Of a DNA stretch of 64,000 bases, positions 22,225-42,838 are shown piece by piece. Position numbers and translations under genes: made by a program. Numbering within the stretch: position 1 is the first letter of the stretch; every line of letters begins with the position of its first letter. Under the pieces are notes generated by a model, which did not search any database, was not told where the DNA came from, and saw only the letters and a list, made by a program, of their open reading frames with translations. Source of the DNA: an uncultured bacterium (GTDB lineage Bacteria > Bacillota_I > Bacilli_A > RFN20 > CAG-826); assembly GCA_949285455.1 (NCBI GenBank), contig CASDXP010000005.1, positions 2,756-66,755 on the forward strand, given 5' to 3'.

Positions 22225-22391
22225 AATGCCTCCTCAGGTGATAAAAAAAGAACGCTTACTTCTATAAAAGAAGTTAACTTTTTGCAAGACATATTTTATA
22301 TAAATATATAGTTATATTAGAAGTGTTTTGCTCAAATTTTTTTGACTTTTACAAAACCATATTATTTAAGTAGAAAATTAGTAGTTTCAAT

Positions 22392-22829
22392 TTATTCTAC
22401 TTCGTAAAATTTTACTTGAATTTGTTTACTTTCTAGCGTGACGATAGCGTAACTTCCTAAACTTCCATCTCTTGGATAATCTAATGAACCAGGATTGATG
22501 AAGTGAATACCATCATGGACACGGTAATCCTTCTTGTGCGTATGGCCAGAAATAACGATCTTAATATTTTTATCGTAAAGATCATTCAATGAATATTGTA
22601 AGATGTGACGCATTATTAAACTACCAAAAGGCGTAGGGTGCACGTACTCTTTTTGCATTTCAAATAAATAATCTCTATTACCTTTGACAGTAATGAAAGG
22701 AAATAGCTCGTCTGGTGAAAGTTCGCTATCACCAGCGTGCAAATATAAATCCATCTTCGGATGTTTTATTAAGAGCTTTTTTAAATTATCAATTTCACCA
22801 TGCGTATCGCTTACTACTAAGATTTTCAT
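22392..22829 (-). CDS. YfcE/MJ0936-family metallophosphoesterase
   Basis: 145-aa ORF. MKILVVSDTHGE..GD..GNRD..GHTH motifs of calcineurin-like phosphoesterases. Confidence 0.7.
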   Translation of the reverse strand: MKILVVSDTHGEIDNLKKLLIKHPKMDLYLHAGDSELSPDELFPFITVKGNRDYLFEMQKEYVHPTPFGSLIMRHILQYSLNDLYDKNIKIVISGHTHKKDYRVHDGIHFINPGSLDYPRDGSLGSYAIVTLESKQIQVKFYEVE

Positions 22830-22980: not shown

Positions 22981-23007
22981 GATGTCACTGAATAATAGGA
23001 GGTGATA

Positions 23008-25122
23008 ATGATGGAACAACCAATTGATTATTCAAAAGATGAAAAAGTTTTAGAAAAATTTGGACGTAATATTACTGAGCAAGTAAAACTTGGTAAAGTT
23101 GATCCTGTCATCGGTCGAAATGACGAAATAAGAAAAATCATCGAAATTTTAGCAAGAAAGACGAAAAATAATGTCATTCTCATCGGTGAACCTGGTGTCG
23201 GTAAAACTGCTATTTTAGAAGGGCTTGCTGAACGTATCGTCAAAAACGATGTGCCTGATTCATTAAAAGATAAAGAAATATTTGAACTTGATATGGGCGC
23301 GCTTGTCGCAGGGGCAAAATATCGTGGTGAATTCGAAGAGAGACTAAAAGCTGTTTTAAATAAAATTAAAGCAAGCGAAGGAAAGATTATTCTTTTCATC
23401 GATGAAATTCATCTCATCGTCGGTGCAGGTCGTACGGATGGAGCATTAGATGCTTCTAATATGCTTAAACCTATGCTTGCGAGAGGCGAAATTGATTGCA
23501 TTGGTGCGACAACTTTAAATGAATATCGTGAATACATTGAAAAAGATCGTGCTTTGGAAAGAAGATTTCAACCAGTCTTAATTAATGAACCAACTGTAGA
23601 AGATACAATTTCTATTTTACGTGGTTTAAAAGAACGATTCGAATCATATCATGGCGTCACTATTATGGATAACGCTCTCGTGGCGGCGGCGACTTTATCA
23701 AATCGTTACATCACTAATAGATTTTTGCCTGATAAAGCTATCGACTTAGTGGATGAAGCATGCGCCTCTATCAAAGTGGAAATTGAATCGATGCCAACGG
23801 AACTTGATGAAACTTTAAGACGTATTCGTCGTCTTGAAATTGAAAAAGCAGCGTTAAGTAAAGAAAATGATGAATCTTCGAAGAAACGCCTTATTGCTCT
23901 AAGTGAAGAACTTGATAAAGAAAATAAAATTAAACAAGAACTTGAATCACGTTGGGTAAATGAAAAGAAAGACATCGAAGAAGCTAAGAACATTAAAAAA
24001 GACATTGAACAGGCTCGTTTTAACTTAGATAAGTACTTACAAAAAGGTGATTACGTTAAGGCGAGTGAAATTCAATATGAAAAAATTCCTAATTTAGAAA
24101 AAAGATTAAAAGAATTAGAAGCAAAAGACGATAGTCATAAACGCTTACTTTCCGAAGTAGTGGATGAAGAAGAAATTGCTCGTATCGTTTCTAAGATGAC
24201 TAACATCCCAGTTTCTAGAATCGCTAAAGGGGATAAAGAAAAAGTTTTAGACTTGCCTAACATCTTAAAAAGAAGAGTGAAAGGGCAAGATGAAGCTATT
24301 AAGCTTGTAAGCGATGCGATCATTAGACAAAGAGCGGGTATCAAAGATCAAAATAAGCCTATTGGTTCATTCCTTTTCTTAGGACCAACTGGTGTTGGCA
24401 AGACTGAAGTGGCAAGAACATTAGCGGAAGCGCTTTTCGATAGCGAACATCATATCATTCGTATCGATATGAGCGAATATATGGAAAAGTTTAGCGTCTC
24501 GCGTCTTATCGGCGCGCCTCCAGGCTATGTCGGTTATGAAGAAGGTGGCCAATTAACGGAAAAAGTCCGTAGAAATCCATATAGTATCGTTTTATTTGAT
24601 GAAATTGAAAAAGCTCATCCTGAAGTATTTAATCTCTTACTTCAAGTTTTAGATGAAGGAAGACTTACTGATTCGCAAGGAAGAGTTGTCGATTTTAAAA
24701 ATACTGTCATCATCATGACTTCTAACTTAGGAAGTGAATATTTGCTCCACGGTGAACAAGAAAAAGTTGAACAACTATTGCATCGAACATTTAGACCTGA
24801 ATTCTTAAATAGAATAGATGAAATTGTTTACTTCCATCCTTTAAATAAAGAAGTGCAACTTCAAGTCGTAAGTAAGATGCTCGATGACTTAGTGAGAAGA
24901 CTTAATGAAATCTATTATTCGTTTAGTTTTACAGCAGAAGCGAAGAAGAAAATTCTTGACGATGCTTATTCTCCTGAATTTGGAGCAAGGCCTTTAAAAC
25001 GTTACATTCAAAATGAAGTTGAAACGATGTTAGCGAAGAAAATTATGGCTAATGAAGTGGACACTAAACACGCTTACGTCGTCGATGTGAAAGATGATCA
25101 ATTCGTCGTTTTAACAAAATAA
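23008..25122 (+). CDS. clpB: ClpB-type AAA+ disaggregase chaperone lacking the N-terminal domain (Mollicutes-type short ClpB)
   Basis: About 704 aa. Two AAA modules (GEPGVGKT and GPTGVGKT Walker A). Coiled-coil middle domain. Begins at the ..[19 protein letters not shown].. region, i.e. no N-domain. ATG 23008 preferred over GTG 23002. Confidence 0.9.
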
Positions 25123-25137
25123 TTTTTCTAAATATTG

Positions 25138-25175
25138 ATAAGATGCTTTCATCTAAGAAGGCATCTTTTTTCATT
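25138..25175 (+). terminator. Rho-independent terminator after clpB
   Basis: AAGATGC...GCATCTT stem followed by TTTTT. Confidence 0.6.
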
Positions 25176-25235
25176 AAAAAATATATTTATTTTCTCCAAT
25201 AAATCCAATATAATTGTATTATCAGGAGCAAAAAG

Positions 25236-25829
25236 ATGATTGTTACAGTTAATATTTTAAAAAATAAATATCAAAATTATCGAAATGTATTAGATAAGAT
25301 TAAAAGAGAAGTAGATAATGGCACTTTAATACGCATTAAAAATGGCTTATATGAAACCGATAGAAATGTTGAACCATATTACCTTGCTTCTTCTATCGTT
25401 TCTCGTTCTTATCTAAGTTTTGAATGGGCTTTATCTATCTATGGTCTTATCCCTGAAAGAGTCTATACATTTACTTCAGCTTCTTATAACCTAAGAAAAA
25501 ATAAAACGTATGTTAATTACTTCGGCTGTTTTGAATTTTATGATGTACCTAAAAATATTTTTTATGAAGGAGTGAATTCTTATCTAGAAAAAGGTTACAT
25601 TTACAAAATTGCTACAAAAGAGAAAGCTATTTGTGATTGTTTGGCTAAGTGGCCAGTTGTCCATTCTATTAAACAACTTAAAATTTTATTGTTCGAAGAT
25701 AAAAGAATTTATGAAAACGAATTTAATAAATGTGATTTTAAAGCAATGTCGAACCTTGCAAGTTTGTATCATAAGACAAATTTAAAACTTTTAGTTGAAT
25801 TAATAAATAAGGAGTATTTATATGCCTAA
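25236..25829 (+). CDS. abiEi: AbiEi-family antitoxin/transcriptional regulator (type IV TA/abortive infection)
   Basis: 197-aa ORF. 8-nt overlap with the downstream nucleotidyltransferase gene. Sequence pattern ..IKNGLYET..YLSFEWALSIYGL.. is shared with the second copy at 57070. Confidence 0.65.
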   Translation: MIVTVNILKNKYQNYRNVLDKIKREVDNGTLIRIKNGLYETDRNVEPYYLASSIVSRSYLSFEWALSIYGLIPERVYTFTSASYNLRKNKTYVNYFGCFEFYDVPKNIFYEGVNSYLEKGYIYKIATKEKAICDCLAKWPVVHSIKQLKILLFEDKRIYENEFNKCDFKAMSNLASLYHKTNLKLLVELINKEYLYA

Positions 25830-26688
25830 CACACTTGAATTAATGCTTGCAAAATACGATTTAAAATCTCAATTAGACAAAGAAAACGCTATTAAGGAAA
25901 TAATGCAAGAAATTGCTTTAGCAGGCTTAGCAAACACTAATTTTTTCACTAAAGCGGCATTTTATGGAGGAACTTGTCTTCGCATTTTCTACGGTTTAGA
26001 TCGATTTAGCGAAGATTTAGATTTTGCACTTTTAAATAAAGATGAAAATTTCGATTTATCAAATTATTTCGAACCATTAAAAAATGAATTTAACATGTAT
26101 GGTATTAATCTAGATATTGAATATATAACGAAGAAAAATAGTGATGTGGAAAGTGCTTTTATTAGTGCGAATACGGCGACTCTTATGCTTCATTTTTATC
26201 ACGATAATAGCGAAGTAAAAAGTATCATCCATAATCAAAAAATTAAAATTAAATTTGAAATAGATATGAATAATCCACCTGGTGGTAAAGTAGAATTTAG
26301 ATATCAAACTCTACCGGAACCTTACGAAATTCAAATATTCGATGAATCTAGTTTATTTGCAGGAAAGATACATGCTATTTTATGTCGTAATTATCTTCAT
26401 CGTGTGAAAGGGCGCGATTATTTTGATTATCTATTTTTTATTTCTAGTGGCACGAAATTTAATCTTAAATATTTAGAAAATAAACTAAAAAATACTGGCG
26501 GGATAATCGATTCAAAAGAAGCGTTAACTTTAGATAAAGTGAAAGAACTTCTTTACGCCAAGTTTAGCCATGTCGATTATCCTTTAATGGTTGAAGATGT
26601 GTCTAAATTTATTCCTAATAAAGAACAATTGAAAACTTATAAAAAAGAATTATTTTTATCTACCTTAAATAAATTGGAATGCACGTAA
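25822..26688 (+). CDS. abiEii: AbiEii-family nucleotidyltransferase toxin (DUF1814)
   Basis: 288-aa ORF. Nucleotidyltransferase motif GGTCLRIFYGLDRFSEDLDF (GS/GG..DxD). Translationally coupled to abiEi. Confidence 0.7.
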   Translation: MPNTLELMLAKYDLKSQLDKENAIKEIMQEIALAGLANTNFFTKAAFYGGTCLRIFYGLDRFSEDLDFALLNKDENFDLSNYFEPLKNEFNMYGINLDIEYITKKNSDVESAFISANTATLMLHFYHDNSEVKSIIHNQKIKIKFEIDMNNPPGGKVEFRYQTLPEPYEIQIFDESSLFAGKIHAILCRNYLHRVKGRDYFDYLFFISSGTKFNLKYLENKLKNTGGIIDSKEALTLDKVKELLYAKFSHVDYPLMVEDVSKFIPNKEQLKTYKKELFLSTLNKLECT

Positions 26689-26741
26689 TTTTTCATTATT
26701 TCTTTATTGTTAAATAAAGTGTGATTATTTATCATAAAAAT

Positions 26742-27836
26742 ATGAAAAGGAAATTACTTCTACTCACAGCATTAATATTGCCGTTAGCAAGTTGCGATTT
26801 CTTTAAGCAATTTTTGCCTGACCCACCTTCACCTCCTAATCCCCCAGTGGAAGGTGATCAATTAAATATAATCGCCCTTGAGATGAAAGGAAGATATGGC
26901 GATAGTCTCATCATTAAATATAACGATTACGACATCTTAGTGGATGCTGGAACGGAAAGCGATGAAGATACAGTACAAGAGGCTTTAGTAAAATATGTGA
27001 CAGATAAAACAATCGATTTATTAATTCTCACTCATCTTCATAGTGACCACATCGGGGCGATGCAAGATGTAAGCTTTTTTAAATCGATTGGAATGAATGT
27101 TAAAACTTTCATCGATCCTGATACTTTACCAACTTCTAAAACGGCAGAAAATTATGTTGATATGCGCGAAGCTTTCGTTAGCGAGGGCAGCGATTACATT
27201 TCGTATTATGATTTAATTAATATTACAGAATATAAAAGAAAGATTTATTTGAGCGAAGAAGATAATATTTATCTAGAGTTCTTTGATACAGGCGCGGTAG
27301 CGAAACCAAAAGAAGAAGTAAGTGATTTAAATTCTTCGAGCATCGCTTGTGTTTTAAATTATTCTAATAGTAAAGTTTTCATGGCTGGTGATTTACCATC
27401 TAGCGAAGAAGAAGCTTTAATAAATAGTATGGATGCTTCGCAAAGAAATTATTTTAAAGAAGAAAATCAAGTGTTATATAAGACGTGTCATCACGGAAGT
27501 ATTACTTCCAATGGCGATGAACTTTTAACATATGTTAAACCAGATACCATTTTTTCTATGTCTGGTATTTTATCAAGCAATCAAGAAAACGCACCTTTAG
27601 AAGACCAACATCCTTACATAGCCGCTATTAACCGTATGGCTAAATATTCTAAAGATATTTATTGGACTTCCATTAACGGAACGACAGTTTTTTCTTCTAA
27701 AGGCGATATATTTACTAAAACATTCGCTGGCCGCACGGTGGATTATTACCTCGATGGTAAGATAGTAAGTAGAGAAGAAGAAAAAGATATTACTTTTTTA
27801 AATAGTGCTTGGTATAAACAATTAAGTCAGACATAA
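26742..27836 (+). CDS. Metallo-beta-lactamase-fold hydrolase lipoprotein (ComEC C-terminal-domain-like)
   Basis: Lipobox LPLASC. HxHxDH motif LTHLHSDHIG. ATG 26742 preferred (MKRKLLLLTALILPLASC). Confidence 0.55.
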   Translation: MKRKLLLLTALILPLASCDFFKQFLPDPPSPPNPPVEGDQLNIIALEMKGRYGDSLIIKYNDYDILVDAGTESDEDTVQEALVKYVTDKTIDLLILTHLHSDHIGAMQDVSFFKSIGMNVKTFIDPDTLPTSKTAENYVDMREAFVSEGSDYISYYDLINITEYKRKIYLSEEDNIYLEFFDTGAVAKPKEEVSDLNSSSIACVLNYSNSKVFMAGDLPSSEEEALINSMDASQRNYFKEENQVLYKTCHHGSITSNGDELLTYVKPDTIFSMSGILSSNQENAPLEDQHPYIAAINRMAKYSKDIYWTSINGTTVFSSKGDIFTKTFAGRTVDYYLDGKIVSREEEKDITFLNSAWYKQLSQT

Positions 27837-28066
27837 ATAAGACTTATAGTCTCAAAGTTGTTTTCATAGCTATTGCTTATTACTTTTTTATTTGCTTAGA
27901 TATATTTTATATCCGCATGTGAGCCTTATATTCGTAAATTAATAATTAAAAATACACATCATTTTTAATAATATTTTCTTTAAATTTGTGAAAAACTCAC
28001 AAAAACAAAAATAATATATGTAAAAATAAGGAATATTTTTCTATAATATATTAGGAGGTAAAAAAT

Positions 28067-29248
28067 ATGTTATTACAATTTTCAACGGTGAATTTTAAAT
28101 CATTTAAAAACGAAGTAACTTTAAATTTGGTAGCTAACAATTTTAAAGAACACGAAGAACGCATTATTTATTTTAATAATGAAAGAGTGCTGCCTCTCGT
28201 CGGTGTTTTTGGTGCGAATGCTTCAGGTAAAAGCAATTTATTAGAAGCTTTTTTCTTCGCTGTCAATTTGATAAGAAATTCTTTATCTTCTCAAACATCA
28301 GAAGAACTTTTTAATATAAAGCCTTTCATGTTTGATGATTCTAAAGATAATTCGCCTTCATCCTTCGATTTTATTTTTGTTAAAGATGGGGTGAAATATG
28401 AATATGGTTTTGCTATTGATAAGAAGTGTGTTATTGAAGAATATTTATATGTATATAAAAGCCAAAAACCATCTTTAGTTTTTGAAAGAAAAAATGTCAA
28501 TGAATATCATTTTAGAGATTATGCTCGTCACGAATTATCGCCGATTGTGTCAAGAACTCTGCCTAATAAATTGTTTTTATCGGTCGCCGCAAATTTCAAC
28601 GCCAAACTTGTCAAAGCTTGTTTTGATTGGTTTAAGAACGATATCAATTTCTATTTTGAACAAGCGATTGAGGAAAAGGCAATTCTAGATGCTATTAAAG
28701 ATGAAAAGATGAATAAATTTATCGCTGATTTTTTAAATCACGCTGATATCAATATATCAAATATTAAATGGCAAATTGCTAAAATAAATAATCAACAAAA
28801 GATTAATTTTAAGACCATGCATCTCATCAGAGCTAATGGGGAATTAAAAGAGTTTTCCTTAGATATAAAAGATGAATCACACGGCACACAAAAATTGCTT
28901 TCATACGCGCCTTTGTTTTATAAAGCGCTAAACTTTGGCGGAGTGGTCGTCATCGATGAGATAGATAATGCTATCCACGTTGAGCTCATGAAATACATCA
29001 TCTCGTTATTTAACGACCCGTTAATAAACAAAACCTCTGCCCAACTTATTTTCAACGCTCAAAATGCCCTCTTGTTAGATTTAGATATTATGCGTCGTGA
29101 TCAAATTTGTTTTGTCGAAAAAAACTTCCTTACTGGTGTTTCTTCTCTTTATTCGCTCGATGAATTTAAGGTGCGCCTGGATGATAAAGTACTAAAAAAA
29201 TATCTAGAAGGAAGATATGGAGCATTACCGAACATCATTTATGAATGA
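28067..29248 (+). CDS. AAA_15/AAA_21-type ATPase (AbiLi/RloA-like abortive-infection ATPase)
   Basis: 393-aa ORF. Walker A GANASGKSNLLEA. Walker B VVIDEIDNAIH. ABC/SMC-like architecture. Stop overlaps the downstream start (ATGAATGA). Confidence 0.6.
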   Translation: MLLQFSTVNFKSFKNEVTLNLVANNFKEHEERIIYFNNERVLPLVGVFGANASGKSNLLEAFFFAVNLIRNSLSSQTSEELFNIKPFMFDDSKDNSPSSFDFIFVKDGVKYEYGFAIDKKCVIEEYLYVYKSQKPSLVFERKNVNEYHFRDYARHELSPIVSRTLPNKLFLSVAANFNAKLVKACFDWFKNDINFYFEQAIEEKAILDAIKDEKMNKFIADFLNHADINISNIKWQIAKINNQQKINFKTMHLIRANGELKEFSLDIKDESHGTQKLLSYAPLFYKALNFGGVVVIDEIDNAIHVELMKYIISLFNDPLINKTSAQLIFNAQNALLLDLDIMRRDQICFVEKNFLTGVSSLYSLDEFKVRLDDKVLKKYLEGRYGALPNIIYE

Positions 29249-29864
29249 AATTATAGTTGGACAAAAGAGGCGAAAATTAAATTCTCGTCTCGATAAAAAA
29301 CTTATCCTCCTAGGTGTAGAAGGAAAAAATAGCACCGAAGCGTCCTATTTTCTTAATTTTAATCGCCTGCAAAATACTTATCGTATCAAAATCGCTAAGG
29401 GGCGAGATACGCATCTATTAAGTATAATAGATGAATTAAATTTGTGCCGTAAAGACACCGATTTTAAAAAAGGAGATTTAATGTATTGTATTTTCGACTT
29501 AGATAATGATCCATATAAAATAAAAGTAGCGGATGAGTTGATAAAAAAATATCGTAAGCAAGACATTATTTTTCTTTATTCTAATCCTTGTTTTGAATTA
29601 TTTTTTCTTTGGCATTTTATTTATTCGACGAAGCCTTATTCAAATAGTCGTAAAGTTATTACTGATTTAAAAAAACACATGCCATATTACGAAAAGAACA
29701 TTAATTGTTTTCACTCATTATTTTCTAAAATTGAAATAGGGATTAGAAACAGTGAAAACATAATGTTTTATCATAGTAGGCATAAACAGTTTGGTATTTA
29801 TTTAAATCCAGTAACTAAAGTTCATGTATTAGTAAAATTATTATTTTCTTTTATACAACGTTAA
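29241..29864 (+). CDS. RloB-like (TOPRIM-like) protein, AbiLii-like partner of the upstream ATPase
   Basis: N-terminal LILLGVEGKNSTEASYF matches the RloB signature (..CEGxKTExxYF). ATG 29241 overlaps the ATPase stop. The ORF track start at 29217 is also possible. Confidence 0.55.
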   Translation: MNEIIVGQKRRKLNSRLDKKLILLGVEGKNSTEASYFLNFNRLQNTYRIKIAKGRDTHLLSIIDELNLCRKDTDFKKGDLMYCIFDLDNDPYKIKVADELIKKYRKQDIIFLYSNPCFELFFLWHFIYSTKPYSNSRKVITDLKKHMPYYEKNINCFHSLFSKIEIGIRNSENIMFYHSRHKQFGIYLNPVTKVHVLVKLLFSFIQR

Positions 29865-30660
29865 TTGGAATAACTTCTAAAGCGAGCATAATCATAAAAC
29901 CAATAATAAAGGCCCATAAGCCAAAATGAATAGCTTTGCCTTTTCTTGCTTCAGGTAAAAGTTCGTCGACTGTAACATAAATCATCGCTCCGCTAGCGAA
30001 GCTAAGTAGCCAAGGAAGAAGTGGCTCTAAATAGAAAGCTAAAAATAAGCTAACGATAGCGAAAATTGGTTCGACTATGCCTGTTAAAGTTGCCATAAGA
30101 AAGGCTTTGACCTTACTCATTCCATTCGCATATAAAGGCACTGAAATTGCAAAAGATTCAGGAATGTTTTGAATAGTGATGCCAATCGCTAGTGAAAGCG
30201 CGGCTAAAGAAGTTTCTAAACTAGGGGTGGCTAAGGCTAATCCGCAAGCAAAACCAACCGCTAAACCTTCCGGTACGTTATGAATTAAAACAGCAAAAAA
30301 TAATTTTGTATGCTTTCCCAATTTGTTCGTTTTAATACCTTCTTCTTCTGAACCTTCATGATGTAAGTGAGGAACAAGTTTATCAATTAAATAAAGTAAA
30401 ATACAACCTATAAAGAAACCAATTAAAACAGGAACGTAAGGGAAAGAAGCATAGGTAGGGGAAGCTTTAGCTTCTTCAATCGAAGGCAAGAGTAAGCCAA
30501 AAATACCTGCCGCTATCATGATGCCGCTTGCAAAGCCTAGAACAAGATTATTAGTTTTATCACTTAAATCCTTTTTAAAAAGAAATACTAAGGCTGAACC
30601 TAATAATGAGCCTAAGAAGATGATAGTAATTGAAATTATTGCATAATGAATCGGTTCCAT
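29851..30660 (-). CDS. ZIP-family divalent-metal (zinc) transporter
   Basis: 269-aa polytopic ORF. His-rich loop HLHHEGSEEEG. Conserved HNxPEG motif (HNVPEGLAVG). Confidence 0.8.
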   Translation of the reverse strand: MEPIHYAIISITIIFLGSLLGSALVFLFKKDLSDKTNNLVLGFASGIMIAAGIFGLLLPSIEEAKASPTYASFPYVPVLIGFFIGCILLYLIDKLVPHLHHEGSEEEGIKTNKLGKHTKLFFAVLIHNVPEGLAVGFACGLALATPSLETSLAALSLAIGITIQNIPESFAISVPLYANGMSKVKAFLMATLTGIVEPIFAIVSLFLAFYLEPLLPWLLSFASGAMIYVTVDELLPEARKGKAIHFGLWAFIIGFMIMLALEVIPINVV

Positions 30661-30741
30661 AGGTTAATTATCATAATAGCGTTAGATATAGCATGCAAGA
30701 AATATGCATGTACGTTAATGTTTTGCTAATTAAAAAAATTG

Positions 30742-31299
30742 CTATAACGTCAAAGTAAAAACAAAAGCAAATATAATTGCGTTAAGCGACGCTAAAATTG
30801 AATAAATTTCGATAGGAATACTTTTAATTTTTTCTTCATTTTGTTCTTTTTCCTCATTTTCTTCTTCATCACTTTCAATCGATTCTAAAGGTTTAGAAAT
30901 AGTTCGCCCTCTTCTTTTAAAATGTTTCATTCTTGTTTGCTGATATAAATATCTTGCTAGCCAAATTATCGTTACCGTAACAAAAAGCAAAACTATAAAA
31001 CTTGGAATATCTAGTGGTTCGTTGATATCAAGATTTAATTTGTAAGTATATTCAACGTAAGCAAAAAGGATGATATCTATGATTAAAATTATGATAGAAA
31101 TGGGAAGCATATAGGTATATTCTCTTTTAGTCATTTTCTTTCTAATTTGATCTTTAGTTAACGCTCCTACTTTATTATCGATATGAAGCCATTTCTTCTT
31201 AAATATTTCTATCAATATAGAGGGATATAAAATCTGAAATAAACTTAATCCTATAATTGCGTATAAATATGAATACATTGATGATTGCCTACCCTTCAA
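30742..31299 (-). CDS. Small polytopic membrane protein, paralog of 31303..31848 (orphan immunity-protein candidate)
   Basis: 185-aa ORF, 3-4 predicted TM helices. N-terminal ~55 aa are closely similar to the neighbouring gene, then diverge. Acidic C-terminal tail. Confidence 0.4.
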   Translation of the reverse strand: MKGRQSSMYSYLYAIIGLSLFQILYPSILIEIFKKKWLHIDNKVGALTKDQIRKKMTKREYTYMLPISIIILIIDIILFAYVEYTYKLNLDINEPLDIPSFIVLLFVTVTIIWLARYLYQQTRMKHFKRRGRTISKPLESIESDEEENEEKEQNEEKIKSIPIEIYSILASLNAIIFAFVFTLTL

Positions 31300-31302
31300 C
31301 GA

Positions 31303-31848
31303 TTAATACAATATTAGAATTGGTATGAGGATGAAACTATTGAACAAAATAATTGAAGTATATAGTGTCATTGCAGCATTTTTGCCTGATTCATTCAAAA
31401 CCCATTTCATTCTTTTCCATCTCTCTCGTGCAGTATGCCGCCCATGGGCTAAATAACCCCCATCGACGGCTTTTATATTTCTTCCAAATATTTTTTTTCT
31501 TGCTTCGTAATAAACGTCAATAATTGCAGAAGCAAGAACAGCAAAGACAAAAAGCAATATTATTATGGAAGCAGCTACTATTAATGGCTTATCCATTGTA
31601 ATTGTGTATTGAAAAGCACAAAAACAATAAATTAGAAGAGTAGCGTTTATTATTAGAATTGGCAAAGAAACTAGAGTTAGAAAAATATGTTCCCTTTTTC
31701 CCATTTTATTTCTTACTTCTCTTTTAGATAAAGTTCCATTTTCATTATCGATATGGAACCATCGTTTTTTAAAAATAGTTATCAACAAAATGGGGAATAA
31801 AATTAGAAATAAACTTAACCCTATAATTGTATATAAATATGGATACAT
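31303..31848 (-). CDS. Small polytopic membrane protein immediately downstream of the RHS toxin gene (cognate immunity-protein candidate)
   Basis: 181-aa ORF beginning 22 nt after the RHS stop on the same strand. Hydrophobic helices. Confidence 0.4.
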   Translation of the reverse strand: MYPYLYTIIGLSLFLILFPILLITIFKKRWFHIDNENGTLSKREVRNKMGKREHIFLTLVSLPILIINATLLIYCFCAFQYTITMDKPLIVAASIIILLFVFAVLASAIIDVYYEARKKIFGRNIKAVDGGYLAHGRHTARERWKRMKWVLNESGKNAAMTLYTSIILFNSFILIPILILY

Positions 31849-31869
31849 TAGATTGCCTACCTGTTTCTA

Positions 31870-34800
31870 TTAATTTTTATTATTTTCTATTATTCCATAC
31901 ATTGATGAATTAAGGAAATCGCTTATTAAATTTTCGAATTTGTCTGAAATTATTTCTAGAAATTTAGGAGTTATAGATGTGCCTAACCTTGCTATTAGCC
32001 TCCCAAATATTTTATCCATTCCATTAGTGAGCTCTCCAAATATGTTAGTACTTATTCCGCTTACAACTCCGTTCATAAAAGAAGTAAAGAGATCCATATC
32101 AGTACCATACGTTAAAAAATCAGTAACTATTGAACCAATAATTTCGCCTGCAAAGGTAGCAACCACATCTACAATAAGCCTGGTGATTTTATAATATATA
32201 TGATTCAAACTAACAGCAGCAAATAATCCGCTTATAAATCCGCTTACAAATGCACCTAAATATTCTTGCCATGATGACCATTTCCATCTAGAAAAATCTA
32301 ATTGGTAATTGATTAGGTTCATTATGATATCTGTGACAAATAATGTAGCGACGCTTATTGCTGCAAATATTATTCCATATAGTAGTGCGGTTAATATCCA
32401 AATCCTTCCGCTTGAATCAACGTACTTAATAGGATTGTTTCTACAATAGATGTATAAATTTAAACCATTAAGTTGAGTTTTAGTTTCATCTAAGATTGAT
32501 AATTCATCACGTGAAATAAATCTAGCGAAGAAGGGACTATAATATCTTGCATTTAGATAATATAAATTAGATTCAGCGTCATAATAATAACTACGATATC
32601 TAAATGGGTTAATATTACCTATATTTTCTGAAGTGTGATTAATAACCTCGTGATTACCAAAAGCATCATATTCATAACTTGCAACTAGAGTTAAATCATC
32701 TTGCTTATAAATGTTTATAATGTCACCAAAAATATTTTTCTCATAAATGTAACTAGTGCCATTATGAGTAAAACCTATTAACGATTTATTCAAGTAATGG
32801 TATTCAATATCTTTCGAACTAGATTTTTCTCTTAAAATAAGATTATTTGATAAATAATATGTTGTTTTTTCACCATTTATTGTTTTTGAAGTTCTAATAC
32901 CGTTTAAATTATAAGTGTAACTAACATTATCAAAATTAATTAAATGCGATTCATTATTCCAAACGAAGGTATGATTATCATATGAAGTAAGTCTTCCTAA
33001 GGCATCGAAAGTTACATCTTTATCATTGACTCTTCTTAAGATATCTTTATTTGATGAAACGTTATAATAGAAGTTATCTACATGCGTGGAATCTAATAAT
33101 ATTTCATCTTCGTGAGTGTAATCATAAGTTGTTCTATTAACTAAATTACCATTTGCATCATAACTATACGTTATCGTTTTATTTAGTTCTTTATTATCTT
33201 CTCTAATTAAACGATCAACTTTATCGTATTTATAATAAGTATTACCAATATCACTTTTTACTTTGGTGACGTTAAGAAGTTTATCGTAATCGTAAGAATA
33301 ACGATGATAAACATTACTTCCAATAATATTTTCTAGCAATTTAATATTTGTAAGAGTCTTTTTGTCAGTGGTGAAATAATTTAAATTCTGTCTTAATAAA
33401 ACATTAGAATTAGTGTCCTTTATTTCGTTATATGTAAGACGACCAAAAACATCAGATTTTAAATTCGCTAAATAGTTAGATGAAGTGATAGAAGTTAATC
33501 TTAAGGTTTTACTATCATAAGAATAACTAGAAGATATAGTCTTATCGCCTAGATTGATACTTTCACTATCCAAACAATTTTTATTAGCGAAAGAATAAGT
33601 GTGAATAACATTAAGTTCATCGTAAGCATCAATTTCTTTAGTTAATCTATCGTAATCATCGTAAGTATATGAAATCGATTCTTCACCTTTTTCAATTTTT
33701 ATCAATCTTTTCTTATCATCATAAGTATAGTTAATAGTGGAATTATCGCTTCTCGTCGATTTTATTAAATTACTATCTTTATCATAAATTGAAGAAATCG
33801 TGTAGTTTAACGGACTAATCGTAGTGACTATCTTTTCCCCGTTAGTGACTAAATCGTCGCTGTAATTGCTAGTGTAGGCAAATGAATATAAAGACGATTC
33901 TCCAATTTTTATGTGGGTTTTACGGTGCTTATAATCATAAGAATAAGTATAAATTATTCCATCTTGCTCCATGGAAGTTAATAAATCCGATGTATAGTTA
34001 AATTTGATTGGATTAATTAAACCATCATCGTTATAAGAAAGATCCACTAGTTTTTGTGAATAGATATCGTAGCCTAATGATAATGTAGAATTATTTGGCC
34101 CGATGATAGTAGTAGGATATCTTGAATTAGAAAGATAATTAATCTGATAATCATCCTCATTTGTGAGTCTTCCTAATTCATCATAAACACTAGTTTTTTC
34201 TTGTTTTAAAGAAGGGGAATCTAAATTATATTGATAAGTTTTGTTCTTAAAACCTAATTCATCATAATTTATTTCTTTAACGTTATTTAAATTATCTATC
34301 GTACGAATTAATCGATTGTAATTATCGTAATCGTATTTCTTTTGAGCTGTAACACCGTAGATATCGTTAGAGACTTCCCTTACCAGATTTGAGTTTCTAT
34401 ATTCGTAATCTATTACGTTAGATGGGCTTAATTTTCTTAGTAAATGTAAGTCGTCATCATAAATATTAATTTCACCAATGACTTCATAAATTTTCACTTC
34501 TAAGTTAGTAAAGAAAGAAGAAGGAATTTCTAAATCAGAAGTAATTTTGATCGTTACCTTACTAACTAAATTATTGAAGAAAACCGGAATAGCTATTTGA
34601 GGGGTGATTCTATCGTAATGAATAGTGTAACTCGCTAGGTCGCCGGTCGCTATTATTTCAATCGATAATTCATTTTCATTATTGATATCAAAATTTGTTA
34701 TATTTGAAAAATCTATGATCGTGGCGGCAAGCAAATATTTTTTTGCAAAATCAATTTCACTTTTTAAAATTTGTAAAGTAAAACTACCATTTGAATAACT

Positions 34801-37800
34801 AACGTTTGTGTAGTTTTTAGTTGCAAGTAAATTTCTTTCTTCATAGCTTACATCGAATACGATATTTCTTTCGTTATAACTTTTATAAGAGGAAGAAGAA
34901 GTGAGCAAATCTAAATCTATGTTTTTTCGATAGATGATGTCACCGTTTTTATTGACGTAAACTGTCGTTTTATTATTGTTTATATTATCTTCAGCGGTAA
35001 TTTCAAAATTGTTCGCATTGACTCCCACATCTTCGATACTAGAATTGTCTACAATTTTATTTGTGATAAGGCCATCTTCAATACGAAGAGTTTTATTCGT
35101 GATATTGTATCCTTTAAATTTCATTTCGCTCCAAATGAAATTAATCTTTTCAGAGTTTGAATTCTCGACGGAGGTAAGATTTTTATAAGTATCGTAGGTA
35201 AATGTTAGTTTTTCCTCGTTTCCTTTATAGCCTTTAAAAATAATTTCATCTTGACCATCGCCTAATGTAAGAAGTCTAGTCATCTTAAATTTAGTTTCGA
35301 TTAGATTAGGATCGATGATGGAAGATAGAAGACCATTTTCATCGTAATTGATAGTAATTGTTTGCACAGATGAAGCAATTTCTACAAGGTTATCGTCGAT
35401 GTATTTAAGAGTTATTTCGTTTTCATTTAAATCGGAAATATAAATTAATCTTCCATAGTAATCAAATCCAAAGATTAAACCCTCTTCGCTTAAAAGGAAA
35501 TCTTGTGCATTATCTTTTTGCGCTAAGACTTCATTAGCCTTCAAAGTTCTATAATAATCGATATCTTTTTTATATCGATCGATTCTTTCTAATATGTCTT
35601 TGATAGAAAGTTTAATCGATTCAATTTGATGATTGTAACTTACGCTTGTGGAATTGAATGAATTAATTTGTGAGGCAGTTATTTGTTCTTCATTATTTAT
35701 CAGTTCACTAAAAACAGAATTCATCGTTTCCATTTGATTAGCGGTTTCTTCTTCCATTTGTTTTAAAGATAATAAGTATTGTTGAGCTTGTTTTGTTAAA
35801 TCTTTTAAAGTCGATTCATATTGTTCAATGGTACTTTCGATAGAAACTATATTTTCATTTTCATAGTAATCAGGTTTAATGTAAGTTTCATCGATATTTT
35901 TTGCATAATAATGATTTAACTCTAACTCGTTCGTAGCAATAGAATAAGCTTCCTTATTGTTAGTATTTAATTTGTAATAATATTTTGGTATGAGCGCAAA
36001 GTATTGTTCTTCTTTTATAGCGATAGAACAATTAATTAAGATAGGATTAACTTTTGTATTAGAGGATTTTAAATAATAACTGCCATTCTTATATTCGACT
36101 TCATTAGGAAAGTAGACAGCATATTGTAAAATTGCCTCATTCTGAGCATAAGTAACATCATTGAAATACATTGATAATAAAGAACGAACTTCGCTTTCAT
36201 CGTCAATTCTCGCCTTTGCTTGACCAATAAAACTAGTAATTTTAATTTGTCCGTTTTCATCTACTACCTTATCAATTGTTTCTAGCGGATCATCGTAAGT
36301 GAAGTGGTGGGTTAGTTTGACTTCTTTTTTCGAAGCCATATTTAAACTGTTCGCAGAGGAAATATAAGTAAGCCCATTAGAACTTATGACTTCGTAAGTT
36401 ACTTCGTGGACGTTACCGTGTCCATCTTTAAATTTATATTTTTGATCGCTATCTAGATAGACACTTTTATTGCTCACTAGATGATAAGAGCCGTCATTAT
36501 TTAAGTAGTACCATTTTTCGTAGAATGTATGAATATTTCCATTTCCATCAATGTAATGAATTTCATTTTGTAGTGCATCGATGTTATTTTGCTTACTTTT
36601 AATTAATCGAGAAGATAAGTTAAAAGCCCAACCTTTTGGAAGCCCCTTAATTTTATCTGCTGCTCTAAATAAATTTCTCGAATCATAATAAAAATTAAGA
36701 TTTACGCTCAATGCGTTAGAAGCGATGCTCGTCAGTGGAATTTCATAATGCAAATTACTTGTATATAAATTAGCCCTAAATGAAGAATTGTGACTAAAAT
36801 TATGCGAGATAATTACATTATTTTTATCATCACCAATACTTTGATATTTTGAAGTTATATTGGGGGTATTCTCACTATCGAAGCTAGTTTCATTAGTGAT
36901 AGCGATAAAAGGATTATTTTCTTTATTGTCAGCGACATATTCTAACGTTAATGTAATTGGTTCAATCGTTACATTTTCTTCTTTACGCTTAACGTCATCG
37001 TTAACGAAAGACGAAATATCGATTCGTAATAAATTATGAGAAGAATTGATAGGAACATTAGCGATGATAGTTTCACCATAAGACACTTTTATGTAATCGA
37101 GATCACTCACATTATCGCTAGCGTCAAATTTGATGTTAATAAACGATAAAAAATGTTCATTGCCTCTATCTTTTAATAATGAGGTAATTTCATCCATGTT
37201 GAGATTAATTTTTGTTAAGTTATTAACGCTATCTATGTAACCGCATATAGTTTTACCAGGATAGACATAATTATCGTTCGAATCTTTTATTTCTATAAGC
37301 GAAACATAGTTATATCTAAAATAAAGTTTAAGATTGACGCTTTGATTGGTGCTTAGATAAGCACTATTTGCTGTAATTATGATAGTTTTAGAAGATGTAA
37401 GATTATTAACTACTTGCACGTCAAAATCTTCACACGATATTTCCCCATCATTAGTCTCTAAATATGGTTCTAATATAAATCCATTATCAGTTCCAAAGAA
37501 ATTAACTTTTTTATCATCAACCTCCATTAATAGCGATGTAACAAAGCCAAGTGAGACTACACTATCACCAGTTTTTAAAGGTATTGTTAACAAGCACCCA
37601 TCGTTCGTAGATATAAGTGTATAGGCGGGACCAGGAATTGTGCCGCTTGTAGTTATTGTAGTTGGTCCATTGAAATAAACTATGGGAGATGGTCTGCTAG
37701 CAGTAGCAGAACTATTAACTCCATAAATTTGTTTATATATAGAGCACGTTAATGAAACAGAATCTTTATTTAAACTAAATGAAAAAGAATTATGTATAGT

Positions 37801-38106
37801 AGAACCATCACTAGCGATATAGGGAGTAGATATTTTTACATTTTTATTCAATGCTGAAATTGTTCGACTTTGTCCAGATAAGTTTTTGGCTAGAAGAAAA
37901 CTATTTTGAATAGGGACAACACTATTAGAAATATTAATAAAAGAAACTGGATGAGTGTATAATTTTATGTCAAGTTCATTAATTTCTTTAGAATAAATAC
38001 TAGATAATGAAAGTTTTAAGTCCTTATTTTTGTAATCGCCCATATAAGGAATATTCGCGTGATTCTTTTTTAAAAAGATGTCTTTAAAATTAAATTTATT
38101 TTGCAT
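31870..38106 (-). CDS. RHS/YD-repeat polymorphic toxin (2078 aa) with hydrophobic C-terminal extension
   Basis: Very long ORF. Many YD repeats (YTYDDKKRL, YTYDDYDRLTKE, YDANGNLVNRTTYDY). Terminal core ends in the ..NNPIKYVDSSGR.. motif, followed by a 177-aa hydrophobic tail. No N-terminal signal peptide seen. Confidence 0.85.
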   Translation of the reverse strand: MQNKFNFKDIFLKKNHANIPYMGDYKNKDLKLSLSSIYSKEINELDIKLYTHPVSFINISNSVVPIQNSFLLAKNLSGQSRTISALNKNVKISTPYIASDGSTIHNSFSFSLNKDSVSLTCSIYKQIYGVNSSATASRPSPIVYFNGPTTITTSGTIPGPAYTLISTNDGCLLTIPLKTGDSVVSLGFVTSLLMEVDDKKVNFFGTDNGFILEPYLETNDGEISCEDFDVQVVNNLTSSKTIIITANSAYLSTNQSVNLKLYFRYNYVSLIEIKDSNDNYVYPGKTICGYIDSVNNLTKINLNMDEITSLLKDRGNEHFLSFINIKFDASDNVSDLDYIKVSYGETIIANVPINSSHNLLRIDISSFVNDDVKRKEENVTIEPITLTLEYVADNKENNPFIAITNETSFDSENTPNITSKYQSIGDDKNNVIISHNFSHNSSFRANLYTSNLHYEIPLTSIASNALSVNLNFYYDSRNLFRAADKIKGLPKGWAFNLSSRLIKSKQNNIDALQNEIHYIDGNGNIHTFYEKWYYLNNDGSYHLVSNKSVYLDSDQKYKFKDGHGNVHEVTYEVISSNGLTYISSANSLNMASKKEVKLTHHFTYDDPLETIDKVVDENGQIKITSFIGQAKARIDDESEVRSLLSMYFNDVTYAQNEAILQYAVYFPNEVEYKNGSYYLKSSNTKVNPILINCSIAIKEEQYFALIPKYYYKLNTNNKEAYSIATNELELNHYYAKNIDETYIKPDYYENENIVSIESTIEQYESTLKDLTKQAQQYLLSLKQMEEETANQMETMNSVFSELINNEEQITASQINSFNSTSVSYNHQIESIKLSIKDILERIDRYKKDIDYYRTLKANEVLAQKDNAQDFLLSEEGLIFGFDYYGRLIYISDLNENEITLKYIDDNLVEIASSVQTITINYDENGLLSSIIDPNLIETKFKMTRLLTLGDGQDEIIFKGYKGNEEKLTFTYDTYKNLTSVENSNSEKINFIWSEMKFKGYNITNKTLRIEDGLITNKIVDNSSIEDVGVNANNFEITAEDNINNNKTTVYVNKNGDIIYRKNIDLDLLTSSSSYKSYNERNIVFDVSYEERNLLATKNYTNVSYSNGSFTLQILKSEIDFAKKYLLAATIIDFSNITNFDINNENELSIEIIATGDLASYTIHYDRITPQIAIPVFFNNLVSKVTIKITSDLEIPSSFFTNLEVKIYEVIGEINIYDDDLHLLRKLSPSNVIDYEYRNSNLVREVSNDIYGVTAQKKYDYDNYNRLIRTIDNLNNVKEINYDELGFKNKTYQYNLDSPSLKQEKTSVYDELGRLTNEDDYQINYLSNSRYPTTIIGPNNSTLSLGYDIYSQKLVDLSYNDDGLINPIKFNYTSDLLTSMEQDGIIYTYSYDYKHRKTHIKIGESSLYSFAYTSNYSDDLVTNGEKIVTTISPLNYTISSIYDKDSNLIKSTRSDNSTINYTYDDKKRLIKIEKGEESISYTYDDYDRLTKEIDAYDELNVIHTYSFANKNCLDSESINLGDKTISSSYSYDSKTLRLTSITSSNYLANLKSDVFGRLTYNEIKDTNSNVLLRQNLNYFTTDKKTLTNIKLLENIIGSNVYHRYSYDYDKLLNVTKVKSDIGNTYYKYDKVDRLIREDNKELNKTITYSYDANGNLVNRTTYDYTHEDEILLDSTHVDNFYYNVSSNKDILRRVNDKDVTFDALGRLTSYDNHTFVWNNESHLINFDNVSYTYNLNGIRTSKTINGEKTTYYLSNNLILREKSSSKDIEYHYLNKSLIGFTHNGTSYIYEKNIFGDIINIYKQDDLTLVASYEYDAFGNHEVINHTSENIGNINPFRYRSYYYDAESNLYYLNARYYSPFFARFISRDELSILDETKTQLNGLNLYIYCRNNPIKYVDSSGRIWILTALLYGIIFAAISVATLFVTDIIMNLINYQLDFSRWKWSSWQEYLGAFVSGFISGLFAAVSLNHIYYKITRLIVDVVATFAGEIIGSIVTDFLTYGTDMDLFTSFMNGVVSGISTNIFGELTNGMDKIFGRLIARLGTSITPKFLEIISDKFENLISDFLNSSMYGIIENNKN

Positions 38107-38259
38107 GTTTCCCCTTTCTTATATGATAAATGATTTTATTGATAAAATGAATGAAAATAGGATTAAGTTAAATGTTTTTAATCATTTATGAAGTAATTAT
38201 TTACTTCTTTAGTTATAATGTAGTTGTTTTAAAAGAAAAGAAAGGTAGAAATAAATAAT

Positions 38260-39456
38260 ATGCATTGCGTAAGAAAAGTTAATGAATCGCTCACGTGGGT
38301 CGGTGCGGATGACCGTAAAATTCATATTTTTGAAGGTGTCTATCCTTTAAAAAGAGGAATGTCTTATAATTCTTACTTACTAAAGGATGAGAAGACGGTT
38401 TTGTTAGACACTGTCGATAAAGCTTGCTTAGAGACTTTTTTAGAAAACGTTAAGTATGCACTAGATGGAAGAAAATTAGATTATATTATCGTCCATCATA
38501 TGGAACCTGATCATTCCGCTACTTTAAAAATTTTATTAGATTATTATCCTGAGGCTACAGTCGTTTGTAACCAAAAGATTTTAAACATGATTTATCAATT
38601 CTTTGGTAGCGATTTAAAACTTCAAACGTTGATCGTTAATGAAGGGGACACTTTAAATGTTGGCGAACATACTTTTCATTTTGTAAACGCTCCAATGGTG
38701 CACTGGCCAGAAGTGATGATGAGTTATGAAAGTAAAGATAAAATTTTATTTTCCGCAGATGCTTTTGGCACTTTTGGTGCTTTAAATGGGGCTTTATTTT
38801 CTGATGAAGTGGAATATGAACATAATTATTTAGATGAAGCGAGAAGATATTACACAAATATTGTTGGAAAATATGGTCCACAAGTGCAAGCGGTCTTAAA
38901 GAAAGCAAGTGCTTTAGACATTAAACTCATTTGCCCATTACATGGTTTCGTCTTTAGAAAAGATTTAGATAAAATTATCGATAAATATTTGAAGTGGAGT
39001 TCTTATACACCAGAAGAAAAAGGTGTTTTATTAGTTTATAGTTCAGTTTATGGTCACACGGAAAATGCCGCGAATATTTTAGCGTGCCAACTGGTGGAAA
39101 AAGGATTGAGAGTCGAAATGTTCGACTTATCTTTAACTGATGTGTCAGAAGTAGTGGCGAATGCTTTTAAATATTCACATATCGTTTTAGCCTCCACAAC
39201 ATACAATATGGGTATATTCTTACTCATGGATAATTTATTACATGATTTAATTGCGCATAATTTACAAAATAGAATTGTTGCTATTATGGAAAATGGTAGT
39301 TGGGCTCCTCAAGCGGGTAAACTTATGAAAGAAGAAGTGATGAAGATGAAAAATATGACCATCTTAGAAAATAGTGTCACGATCAAATCGAGCGTGGATG
39401 AATCTTCTTTAACACAAATTGTTTCTCTTGCGGACGCTATAGCGAAAACTTTTTAA
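38260..39456 (+). CDS. Flavodiiron protein (FprA-type; MBL-like diiron domain + flavodoxin domain)
   Basis: 398-aa ORF. N-terminal HxExDH-type diiron motif (HHMEPDHSA). C-terminal flavodoxin-like domain (LLVYSSVYGHTE). Confidence 0.7.
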   Translation: MHCVRKVNESLTWVGADDRKIHIFEGVYPLKRGMSYNSYLLKDEKTVLLDTVDKACLETFLENVKYALDGRKLDYIIVHHMEPDHSATLKILLDYYPEATVVCNQKILNMIYQFFGSDLKLQTLIVNEGDTLNVGEHTFHFVNAPMVHWPEVMMSYESKDKILFSADAFGTFGALNGALFSDEVEYEHNYLDEARRYYTNIVGKYGPQVQAVLKKASALDIKLICPLHGFVFRKDLDKIIDKYLKWSSYTPEEKGVLLVYSSVYGHTENAANILACQLVEKGLRVEMFDLSLTDVSEVVANAFKYSHIVLASTTYNMGIFLLMDNLLHDLIAHNLQNRIVAIMENGSWAPQAGKLMKEEVMKMKNMTILENSVTIKSSVDESSLTQIVSLADAIAKTF

Positions 39457-42237: not shown

Positions 42238-42271
42238 TTAAATATTTATTTCAATAGCAATAAAATTACAA

Positions 42272-42304
42272 GGGTCTTGCTTCCTAAAGCAAGGCTCTTT
42301 TTAA
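42272..42304 (+). terminator. Rho-independent terminator after the 858-aa lipoprotein gene
   Basis: CTTGCTT...AAGCAAG stem followed by CTCTTTTT. Confidence 0.6.
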
Positions 42305-42732: not shown

Positions 42733-42760
42733 GCAATAGTTTATTAAGAAACAATCTTCT

Positions 42761-42786: not shown

Positions 42787-42838
42787 TTATTTGATAAATG
42801 CTTATCATTAATAATGATATTGCTATATAATGTGATAT

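Follow-up and report, generated by a model that had tools for sequence, protein, structure and literature searches.

Three independently segregating conflict-gene cassettes between clpB and a flavodiiron protein gene in an uncultured Bacilli lineage

In a 64,000-nt stretch of contig CASDXP010000005.1 (assembly GCA_949285455.1; the whole stretch is called the window below), from an uncultured bacterium of the RFN20; CAG-826 lineage, the interval between clpB and a flavodiiron protein (FDP) gene consists of three independently segregating cassettes, AbiE, AbiL and RHS, and of two resident genes, which encode a metallo-β-lactamase (MBL)-fold lipoprotein and a ZIP-type metal transporter. It is not 13 kb of DNA acquired at once. 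We consider it highly probable that the interval serves conflict genes as a recombination hotspot in the chromosome and is not a single mobile island. The observations behind this view are the identities of the genes, the presence/absence polymorphism of the cassettes, the mosaic identity of the DNA, a recombinant rhs gene, and the co-variation of its toxin region with an adjacent immunity gene.

An earlier reading of the same DNA, here called the original prediction, had listed the genes between clpB and the FDP gene as parts of an accessory/defence island. The open reading frame (ORF) map and profile searches reproduced every call in that list and its order:

23002-25122, + strand: clpB, left core anchor (TIGR03346 positions 152-852 of 853, 1096 bits)
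25236-25829, + strand: abiEi (PADLOC PDLC02230, E=4.8e-55)
25822-26688, + strand: abiEii (PF08843, 91.6 bits, cut-off 22.5; PADLOC PDLC02293, 1.1e-95)
26742-27836, + strand: MBL-fold lipoprotein, 364 aa (PF00753)
28067-29248, + strand: abiLi (PF13304 AAA_21, 102 bits, cut-off 27; PADLOC AbiLi, 2.5e-85)
29217-29864, + strand: abiLii (PF13707 RloB, 102.5 bits, cut-off 31.5; PADLOC AbiLii, 4.9e-19)
29851-30660, − strand: ZIP/ZupT-type metal transporter (PF02535, 117.8 bits)
30742-31278, − strand: imm2, distal ORF with four transmembrane (TM) segments, 178 aa, 43% identical to imm1
31303-31848, − strand: imm1, 4-TM ORF next to the 3' end of rhs, 43% identical to imm2
31870-38106, − strand: rhs, 2078 aa (TIGR03696 Rhs_assc_core, 69.9 bits, cut-off 32.5; TIGR01643; PF05593)
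38260-39456, + strand: FDP gene, right core anchor (PF19583 ODP and a flavodoxin domain; NF008887 at 7e-77, below cut-off)

A terminator hairpin lies 3' of clpB at 25140-25167, and the FDP gene and rhs are divergently transcribed across 38107-38259.

Seven gene contents at one chromosomal position

From independent metagenome assemblies we collected the regions that surround ClpB orthologues, plus the region of one RHS orthologue, which gave 20 related contigs (designated by L-numbers). The nearest named relatives of ClpB are 77-79% identical and are labelled 'MAG: Bacilli bacterium' or 'Erysipelotrichaceae bacterium'. None of the genera at that distance shows synteny at the locus, and the comparison was therefore confined to an informative clade with 77-90% nucleotide identity in a 6.9-kb core block, nrdG-clpB. 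Metagenomic ClpB proteins form a tight group at 90-100% identity; in the species-representative genome collection, no ClpB relative above 69% identity was among the matches listed. Metagenome contigs searched with the ZIP gene yielded two loci, both unrelated.

All relatives with a core identity of 77% or more retain the flanks, nrdD-clpB and FDP-Big_2; the FDP gene adjoins the interval in L087, L088, L098 and L100. Between these flanks the relatives do not share one gene order. Across the 20 contigs the interval measures about 2 to 13 kb and has seven architectures, that of the window included, so the synteny comparison bears out the variable content that the original prediction had proposed:

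Window: AbiE, MBL, AbiL, ZIP and RHS present
L081-L084 and L097 (L086 up to its contig end): AbiE, MBL, ZIP and RHS present; AbiL absent
L088 (representative of four contigs): AbiE, MBL and ZIP present; AbiL and RHS absent; ZIP abuts FDP
L098: AbiE absent; MBL a split pseudogene; AbiL present (419/204-aa allele); ZIP present; RHS absent, with ZIP and FDP adjacent
L089: AbiE absent; MBL an internally deleted stump; AbiL present (divergent allele, as in L098); ZIP present; immunity gene(s), where the contig ends
L087 (outgroup): AbiE absent; MBL 5' stump fused to an RloB stump; ZIP present; RHS absent, with FDP after ZIP
L100/L101: abiEi intact, 628 bp of abiEii deleted; MBL, AbiL (window allele), ZIP and RHS present

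The breakpoints of the cassettes are sharp, and their extents in the window are as follows:

25123..26720, + strand: AbiE cassette, abiEi (antitoxin/repressor) and abiEii (DUF1814 nucleotidyltransferase toxin)
27826..29860, + strand: AbiL cassette, promoter region 27837-28066, abiLi and abiLii
30741..38161, − strand: RHS cassette, present or absent as a unit, with imm2, imm1, and rhs together with 55 bp upstream of its start

In L088 the RHS cassette is missing exactly from 30741 to 38161, and no direct repeats were found at the empty junction. The AbiL segment 27826-29860 is replaced by 18 bp in L081-L084, L086, L088 and L097. In strains that lack AbiE (L087, L089 and L098), clpB and MBL meet at another junction, where the MBL gene comes straight after the clpB terminator; the outgroup L087 and L089 share it.

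The two resident genes behave differently from the cassettes. Wherever a relative's contig extends to ZIP, the gene is intact, which holds for no other gene of the interval; its nucleotide identity among relatives is 75-92%, like that of the core genes. MBL persists, whole or as a remnant, in all relatives with contigs that extend to it, being fragmentary in L087 and L089 and split in L098. Because both genes persist in this way in all relatives reached, a single acquisition of the 13 kb does not account for the interval. The island of the original prediction therefore stands as the stretch of lowest GC and of variable content and falls as one unit, since three cassettes are set around the residents ZIP and MBL. 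Its description as defence DNA is apt for AbiE and AbiL; the RHS cassette belongs to bacterial competition, and the MBL lipoprotein is probably not a defence component.

Exchange of cassettes between lineages

The neighbour-joining tree of the 6.9-kb core has the topology (L087,(L089,(window,((L098,L088),(L097,(L081,L082,L085)))))), and the presence of the cassettes is incongruent with it. RHS is scattered over the tree, and neither AbiE nor AbiL agrees between the sister contigs L098 and L088, whose cores are 95% identical.

The interval is also mosaic in its identity to relatives. Between the window and L081-L084, core genes are 86-91% identical, abiEi/abiEii 97-98%, and positions 33451-37158 of rhs 96-100%. 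Likewise, nucleotide identity in the AbiE cassette is 96-98% (94-100% per 300-nt segment) across lineages whose clpB genes are 88-91% identical. At third codon positions, the window and L081 agree in 66-85% of cases for core genes (clpB 77%, nrdD 77%, ZIP 75%), as against 97% for abiEi, 97% for abiEii and 98% for rhs 33451-37158. The shared ancestor of the cassettes is therefore far more recent than that of their flanks.

A complementary pattern was found with L100. Here, positions 26486-33085 are 99-100% identical, which takes in MBL, AbiL, ZIP, both immunity genes and the 3' end of rhs, while identity falls to 82-94% in rhs 33086-36085 and to 86-96% in the flanking genes. Because the patterns against L081 and L100 complement each other, the window rhs is a recombinant that joins an L100-like toxin-immunity 3' end to an L081-like 5' part, with the breakpoint at about 33100-33450. 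Horizontal acquisition, as suggested by the original prediction, thus finds support at the level of the cassettes: AbiE and most of rhs are 96-100% identical across lineages with flanks at 88-91%, and cassette presence conflicts with the core tree.

The whole gene set could instead be ancestral, with the differences between strains produced by lineage-specific deletions only and no horizontal exchange. Deletions are indeed directly visible, no less so than gains: the MBL-RloB stump fusion of L087, the MBL stump of L089, the 628 bp lost from abiEii in L100/L101, and P0147, an RHS stump of 98 aa in which the first ~15 and last ~60 residues are fused. From P0147 it follows that some strains lost nearly the whole 6.2-kb rhs gene by internal deletion. 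The AbiL alleles, 30-33% apart in nucleotide sequence, suggest long residence, and mobility genes are lacking. Deletion alone, however, does not make cassettes much younger than their flanks, as the third-codon identities (97-98% against 66-85%) and a measured ten-fold difference in synonymous divergence indicate, nor does it produce mosaic blocks that are 99-100% identical between lineages 86-90% identical outside them. It is further contradicted by the conflict between cassette presence and the core tree, as in the sisters L088 and L098, by the clean empty sites of the RHS cassette in the outgroup and two ingroup lineages, and by the AbiE-free junction shared by the outgroup and L089. We regard this explanation as improbable.

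Still less probable, in our estimate, is that the 13 kb represents one integrated mobile element, such as a genomic island, a degenerate prophage or integrative and conjugative element, or a transposon, acquired as a unit. Base composition is one feature in common with such an element. The block 25236-38106 has 29.6% GC compared with 33.4% for the window, the window's lowest-GC stretch of that size coincides with it apart from an offset of ~165 bp, and both GC and GC at third codon positions set island genes apart from the others (Mann-Whitney p about 0.001). Several conflict systems are clustered, the block of at least 26486-33085 that is 99-100% identical to L100 indicates that large pieces can travel together, and plasmids from many phyla carry members of the AbiE and AbiL families, at 33-38% identity. 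Gene by gene, however, the low GC belongs to the cassettes (26-32%), and MBL (33.8%) and ZIP (36.0%) are host-like, in keeping with residents that behave as core genes inside the block while the cassettes around them segregate independently.

Signs of mobility were also missing. The ORF map and profile searches revealed no integrase, recombinase or transposase among the ORFs, and the window's only tRNA gene is tRNA-His at 50048-50124. Direct repeats, which the original prediction had named as a check on the flanks, were found neither by repeat searches of the flanks nor at the empty-site junctions, and searches for direct or inverted repeats bounding the cassettes returned only AT-rich chance matches. 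No close relatives of AbiEii or AbiLi were found on viral contigs. The two long AT-rich intergenic regions that had been taken as flanks, 27837-28066 (230 bp, 19.6% GC) and 38107-38259 (153 bp, 19.0% GC), are ordinary for this genome, in whose window intergenic regions average 22.8% GC and four measure 477-607 bp; the first is moreover internal, being the promoter region inside the AbiL cassette. A scan for promoters and terminators was uninformative (68 promoter-like sites against 80 expected), the clpB terminator excepted.

Given the lack of an integrase, transposase, tRNA gene, bounding repeats and viral-contig kin, turnover most likely proceeds by homologous recombination at conserved neighbours together with deletion. 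A comFA/comFC-like pair at 1891-3637, a DEAD/ResIII helicase followed by an overlapping phosphoribosyltransferase-domain protein, hints at natural competence, which would fit DNA uptake as the route of recombination.

An artefact of metagenome assembly or binning, with chimeric contigs that mix strains, is hardly credible: all sequences are short-read metagenome assemblies, in which co-occurring strains at about 90% identity can mis-join, and the L100 contig ends just upstream of abiEi with 95 nt unmatched, but the L081 type recurs in five ENA samples and one Logan run, the L100/L101 type comes from ENA and Logan runs with identical junctions, and the L088 architecture is found in four contigs, with junctions at gene boundaries and intact ORFs on either side.

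The RHS protein and its C-terminal tip

The RHS protein encoded by the cassette can be divided into three parts:

36775..38106, − strand: N-terminal domain, ~444 aa, no family match
32407..36774, − strand: RHS/YD-repeat shell, about residues 445-1900 (TIGR03696, TIGR01643, PF05593)
31873..32406, − strand: C-terminal toxin domain (tip), residues 1901-2078, predicted to be hydrophobic and all-helical, with a glycine-zipper-like motif

The shell is recognized by TIGR01643 at 38.1 bits (cut-off 15.8) and by matches to Rhs structures in the PDB, best with 8h8a (1e-15) and more weakly with 5kis, 8qjd and the Tse5 structure 8cp6. It contains a coiled-coil insert at about residues 750-870 and closes with the Rhs-associated core (residues 1813-1900, TIGR03696), which ends in the cleavage-type motif YCRNNPIKYVDSSG. 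The sequence YCRNNPIKYVDSSGR is a variant of the PxxxxDPxGL-type motif, with DSSG for DPxG, that is invariant in all orthologues; variability begins right after it. Among 5.8 billion protein clusters, full-length homologues are confined to three clusters of this clade (82-94% identical), and the other matches cover the YD/core part only.

Residues 1-880 gave no family match, and neither PAAR, LXG or VgrG domains nor a signal peptide or N-terminal hydrophobic segment was found there. In phmmer searches, the N-terminal domain likewise has homologues only in the clade's three orthologue clusters. Its first 200 residues are hypervariable (57-62% identical to P0122, compared with 86-98% over the next 400 aa), and the AF2 model of the N-terminal 460 aa was unusable (pLDDT 32.4). 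No secretion-system genes are present in the annotated parts of the window.

The tip, 178 aa with three hydrophobic segments, matches no Pfam, NCBIfam or PDB family, and AF2 models it as all-helical with low confidence (pLDDT 51.8). A search of 1.84 billion representative proteins gave just nine matches, of which the four of sufficient length all follow the end of an RHS core; the tip, with its conserved motif D..SN...W..S.WQ.Y.G..GG, thus recurs after RHS core ends in other organisms. In the clade it has at least five alleles, 53-76% identical, next to 600 aa that are 89-100% identical.

The two ORFs downstream, imm1 and imm2, each have four hydrophobic, predicted TM segments and belong to no Pfam, PADLOC, NCBIfam or PDB family. 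Identities of the tip and imm1 change together: 100/100% relative to L100, 76/58% relative to L081 and 53/52% relative to L097. The imm1 region is the most divergent DNA of the interval (59% nucleotide identity to L081). By contrast, imm2 is 83% identical between strains, independent of the toxin allele. Tip alleles with a co-varying imm1 and a constant imm2 amount to the signature of a polymorphic toxin with cognate immunity and a conserved second paralogue. From these sequences we read imm1 as the probable cognate immunity protein and imm2 as a candidate extra, orphan or ancestral immunity gene.

The nearest counterpart in function is Tse5/Tsi5 of P. aeruginosa, an Rhs protein with a non-enzymatic, helical, pore-forming tip and an integral membrane immunity protein (PMC9637101, PMC10684867). 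Shared features are the YD shell with an Rhs-associated core, a short hydrophobic helical tip in which no enzymatic domain is recognized, and a membrane immunity gene directly downstream. The exchange of tip alleles by recombination within a conserved core also recalls Rhs C-terminal displacement in general (PMC4436062), although here the alleles have diverged within one toxin family and are not unrelated toxins. Unlike Tse5, the protein bears no sequence likeness to Tse5-CT, has no PAAR/VgrG or other type VI secretion system (T6SS) context, LXG domain or signal peptide, and combines a lineage-specific N-terminal domain of ~444 aa, the coiled-coil insert and two paralogous immunity genes. With no sequence tie to Tse5 and no T6SS context, a membrane-depolarising mechanism is proposed by analogy.

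Our tentative proposal, about which we have more doubt than confidence, is that the tip represents an undescribed, rare family of RHS-borne membrane-active toxins in which the conserved motif above forms a glycine-zipper core and which a dedicated 4-TM immunity protein neutralises, carried by a protein with a lineage-specific, hypervariable N-terminal domain and no known secretion signal.

The AbiE cassette

The abiEi and abiEii genes overlap by 8 nt (25822-25829), with the antitoxin gene first. The PADLOC match of AbiEi spans its full length, and AbiEii contains the nucleotidyltransferase (NTase) motif GGTCLR...SEDLDF, as read from the sequence. A palindrome upstream of abiEi, ATTTATT-N6-AATAAAT, was spotted by eye only.

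AbiE is a type IV toxin-antitoxin (TA)/abortive-infection system with a known mechanism (PMC3985639). Its AbiEi/AbiEii pairs from Lactococcus and Streptococcus agalactiae (PMC3985639, PMC7319586) share with the window an overlapping bicistronic operon, the antitoxin in first position and a DUF1814 NTase toxin that carries the NTase motif. The window differs from the AbiE equivalog in the score of AbiEi (NCBIfam NF047376, 25.7 bits against a cut-off of 150) and in that the plasmid homologues of AbiEii are just 35-38% identical. The 628-bp deletion of abiEii next to an intact abiEi (L100 21619-22221 and L101 13315-13917, equivalent to window 25858-26485), in the strain that is nearest to the window over the island, is toxin-first decay of a TA pair.

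MBL is intact only where AbiE is present, and we considered whether AbiE and MBL form a three-gene system. This is unlikely, as the MBL protein is a secreted lipoprotein and its gene has its own promoter region in AbiE-free relatives. The correlation is explained by co-transfer, because the high-identity AbiE tract reaches into the 5' part of MBL and stops there.

The AbiL cassette

The AbiL genes overlap by 32 nt, and the 3' end of the cassette convergently overlaps the ZIP stop by 14 nt. AbiLi shows Walker A (GANASGKS) and Walker B (VVVIDEID) motifs, read from the sequence, and the PADLOC match of AbiLii covers a partial profile. The cassette is 100% identical in L100/L101, is present in L089 and L098 as an allele with 67-70% nucleotide identity to the window's, and is reduced to an RloB stump in L087.

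AbiL has been grouped with systems that pair an ABC ATPase with a TOPRIM protein, including P2 Old, Gabija and PARIS (PMC11464382). Like the lactococcal AbiLi/AbiLii, the window's system consists of two overlapping genes for an AAA_21 ATPase with Walker A/B motifs and an RloB/TOPRIM-type second protein. Unlike the lactococcal system, it has its nearest plasmid homologues at 33-38%, and two alleles 67-70% identical share one slot in the clade.

The resident MBL lipoprotein and ZIP transporter

The MBL ORF opens at GTG 26721, and its likely start is Met 26742. The predicted protein begins with a signal peptide and the lipobox MKRKLLLLTALILPLASC (LPLASC) and contains the motif HLHSDH, both read from the sequence; its C-terminal part resembles the MBL domains of ComEC, Avs1a and LmuA, all below cut-offs. 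It is probably a resident extracellular hydrolase or nuclease and not a defence effector.

A role as an AVAST/Lamassu-type effector was considered and rejected: the Avs1a/LmuA matches are partial and fall far short of the cut-off (59 against 420 bits), the protein carries a lipoprotein signal, and there is no partner gene. The ZIP protein matches NF003243 ZupT at 5e-38, below cut-off.

Neighbouring genes and variable regions

Left of the interval, the window contains the following genes:

19825-22224, − strand: nrdD (PF13597 NRDD, E=1.6e-193)
22392-22829, − strand: small metallophosphoesterase (PF12850 Metallophos_2)

NrdD has a C-terminal glutaredoxin/thioredoxin-like extension at residues of about 717-782. 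Positions 21822-22421 of this region are 96-100% identical to L081, compared with about 90% for the rest of the gene, and form a further recombination tract, in core DNA.

The window ClpB lacks the N-terminal domain of roughly 150 aa, and 172 bp separate its gene from the divergent upstream gene. The absence is a lineage trait and not a truncation, because ClpB measures 699-712 aa in all relatives down to 75% identity. P0001, 100% identical to the window ClpB, has 703 aa compared with 706, probably owing to a different called start.

A second variable region lies just upstream of the clpB-FDP hotspot, at 14871-18172. It comprises YccF, two orphan ORFs and a 545-aa Big_2 protein, and is missing from L087 and L097, where an HTH regulator abuts a radical-SAM gene. 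On the right, the 858-aa Big_2 surface protein next to the FDP gene (39661-42237) has orthologues that are 70-75% identical over about 64% of its length, compared with about 90% for the neighbouring genes, which marks it as a fast-evolving surface-protein locus. L100 has an extra 437-aa Big_2 gene between FDP and the counterpart of the 858-aa gene.

Three AAA_14/DUF4143 ATPases (3766-5124, 50168-51463 and 51941-53149) match the PADLOC candidate defence family PDC-S01 with E=1e-93 to 1e-174. Two of them are beside tRNA-His (50048-50124), possibly a second accessory spot. Directly after the Big_2 gene, L087 and L100 have a PDC-S01-family gene and then secG, where the window has a 601-bp gap (42238-42838).

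Discussion

In the hotspot reading that we favour, cassettes would be gained, swapped and lost independently, through recombination of incoming DNA anchored in clpB, MBL, ZIP, the RHS core and FDP, and through spontaneous deletions. Until a phage infects, the AbiEi antitoxin/repressor would restrain the AbiEii nucleotidyltransferase toxin. AbiL would act as an OLD/PARIS-like pair in which, by analogy, the ABC (AAA_21) ATPase is the sensor and the RloB/TOPRIM protein the nuclease effector. The YD-repeat shell may encapsulate and autoproteolytically release the hydrophobic helical C-terminal domain of roughly 180 aa, which may then insert into a target membrane and dissipate the membrane potential. 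The imm1 product would protect as the cognate immunity protein, with imm2 as an additional or ancestral paralogue.

Several points weigh against parts of this account. The core tree is built on 6.9 kb that has itself recombined, for example at 21822-22421 with its 96-100% identity to L081, and every sequence used for comparison is a metagenomic contig from an uncultured organism. The AbiL slot seems to have been filled long ago, given its alleles at 67-70% and the stump in the outgroup, and loss may prevail over gain there. The second protein of the comFA/comFC-like pair scores 67 bits with TIGR00201 comF, below cut-off. With regard to the toxin, family searches found no export or delivery domain in the RHS protein, and a tip-family profile run against all PDB sequences gave nothing better than E=1.7 and no likeness to Tse5-CT. 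In L099, the gene downstream of a distant tip homologue is unrelated to imm1. The evidence for a membrane toxin consists of hydropathy, the model at pLDDT 51.8 and analogy. More generally, our statements on biochemical activities, on the membrane as target and on the routes of recombination and RHS export are all inferred.

The kind of region is already known, and the organism is new. Core-gene-flanked hotspots have been described as the core defence hotspots of Pseudomonas aeruginosa (PMC10250203) and in the defence-island repertoire of E. coli (PMC10121019). The clpB-FDP interval resembles them in its fixed position between conserved genes, its strain-variable and mostly defence cargo, its atypical composition and its lack of mobility genes of its own, and it can be classed with them as a hotspot for defence and competition. 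It differs from them in its size of only 2-13 kb, in the two residents that split it into three slots, in that an RHS toxin cassette for competition between bacteria takes up half of it, and in its host, an uncultured Bacilli lineage known from metagenomes alone. Real potential for novelty is limited to the RHS tip, as an unannotated family, to the immunity protein that goes with it and to the orphan N-terminal domain.

The locus leaves current concepts unchanged and offers a small natural example of conflict-gene turnover in uncultured Bacilli, in which recombination anchored in housekeeping genes swaps cassettes between species-level lineages, and crossovers within rhs exchange toxin tips and immunity genes. 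The rare, unannotated tip family and its immunity partner, with several natural alleles, provide material for cross-immunity tests. If our tentative proposal for the tip and its carrier protein is true, RHS toxins in this reduced, uncultured Bacilli lineage would be expected to use a so far unknown route of delivery or receptor binding.

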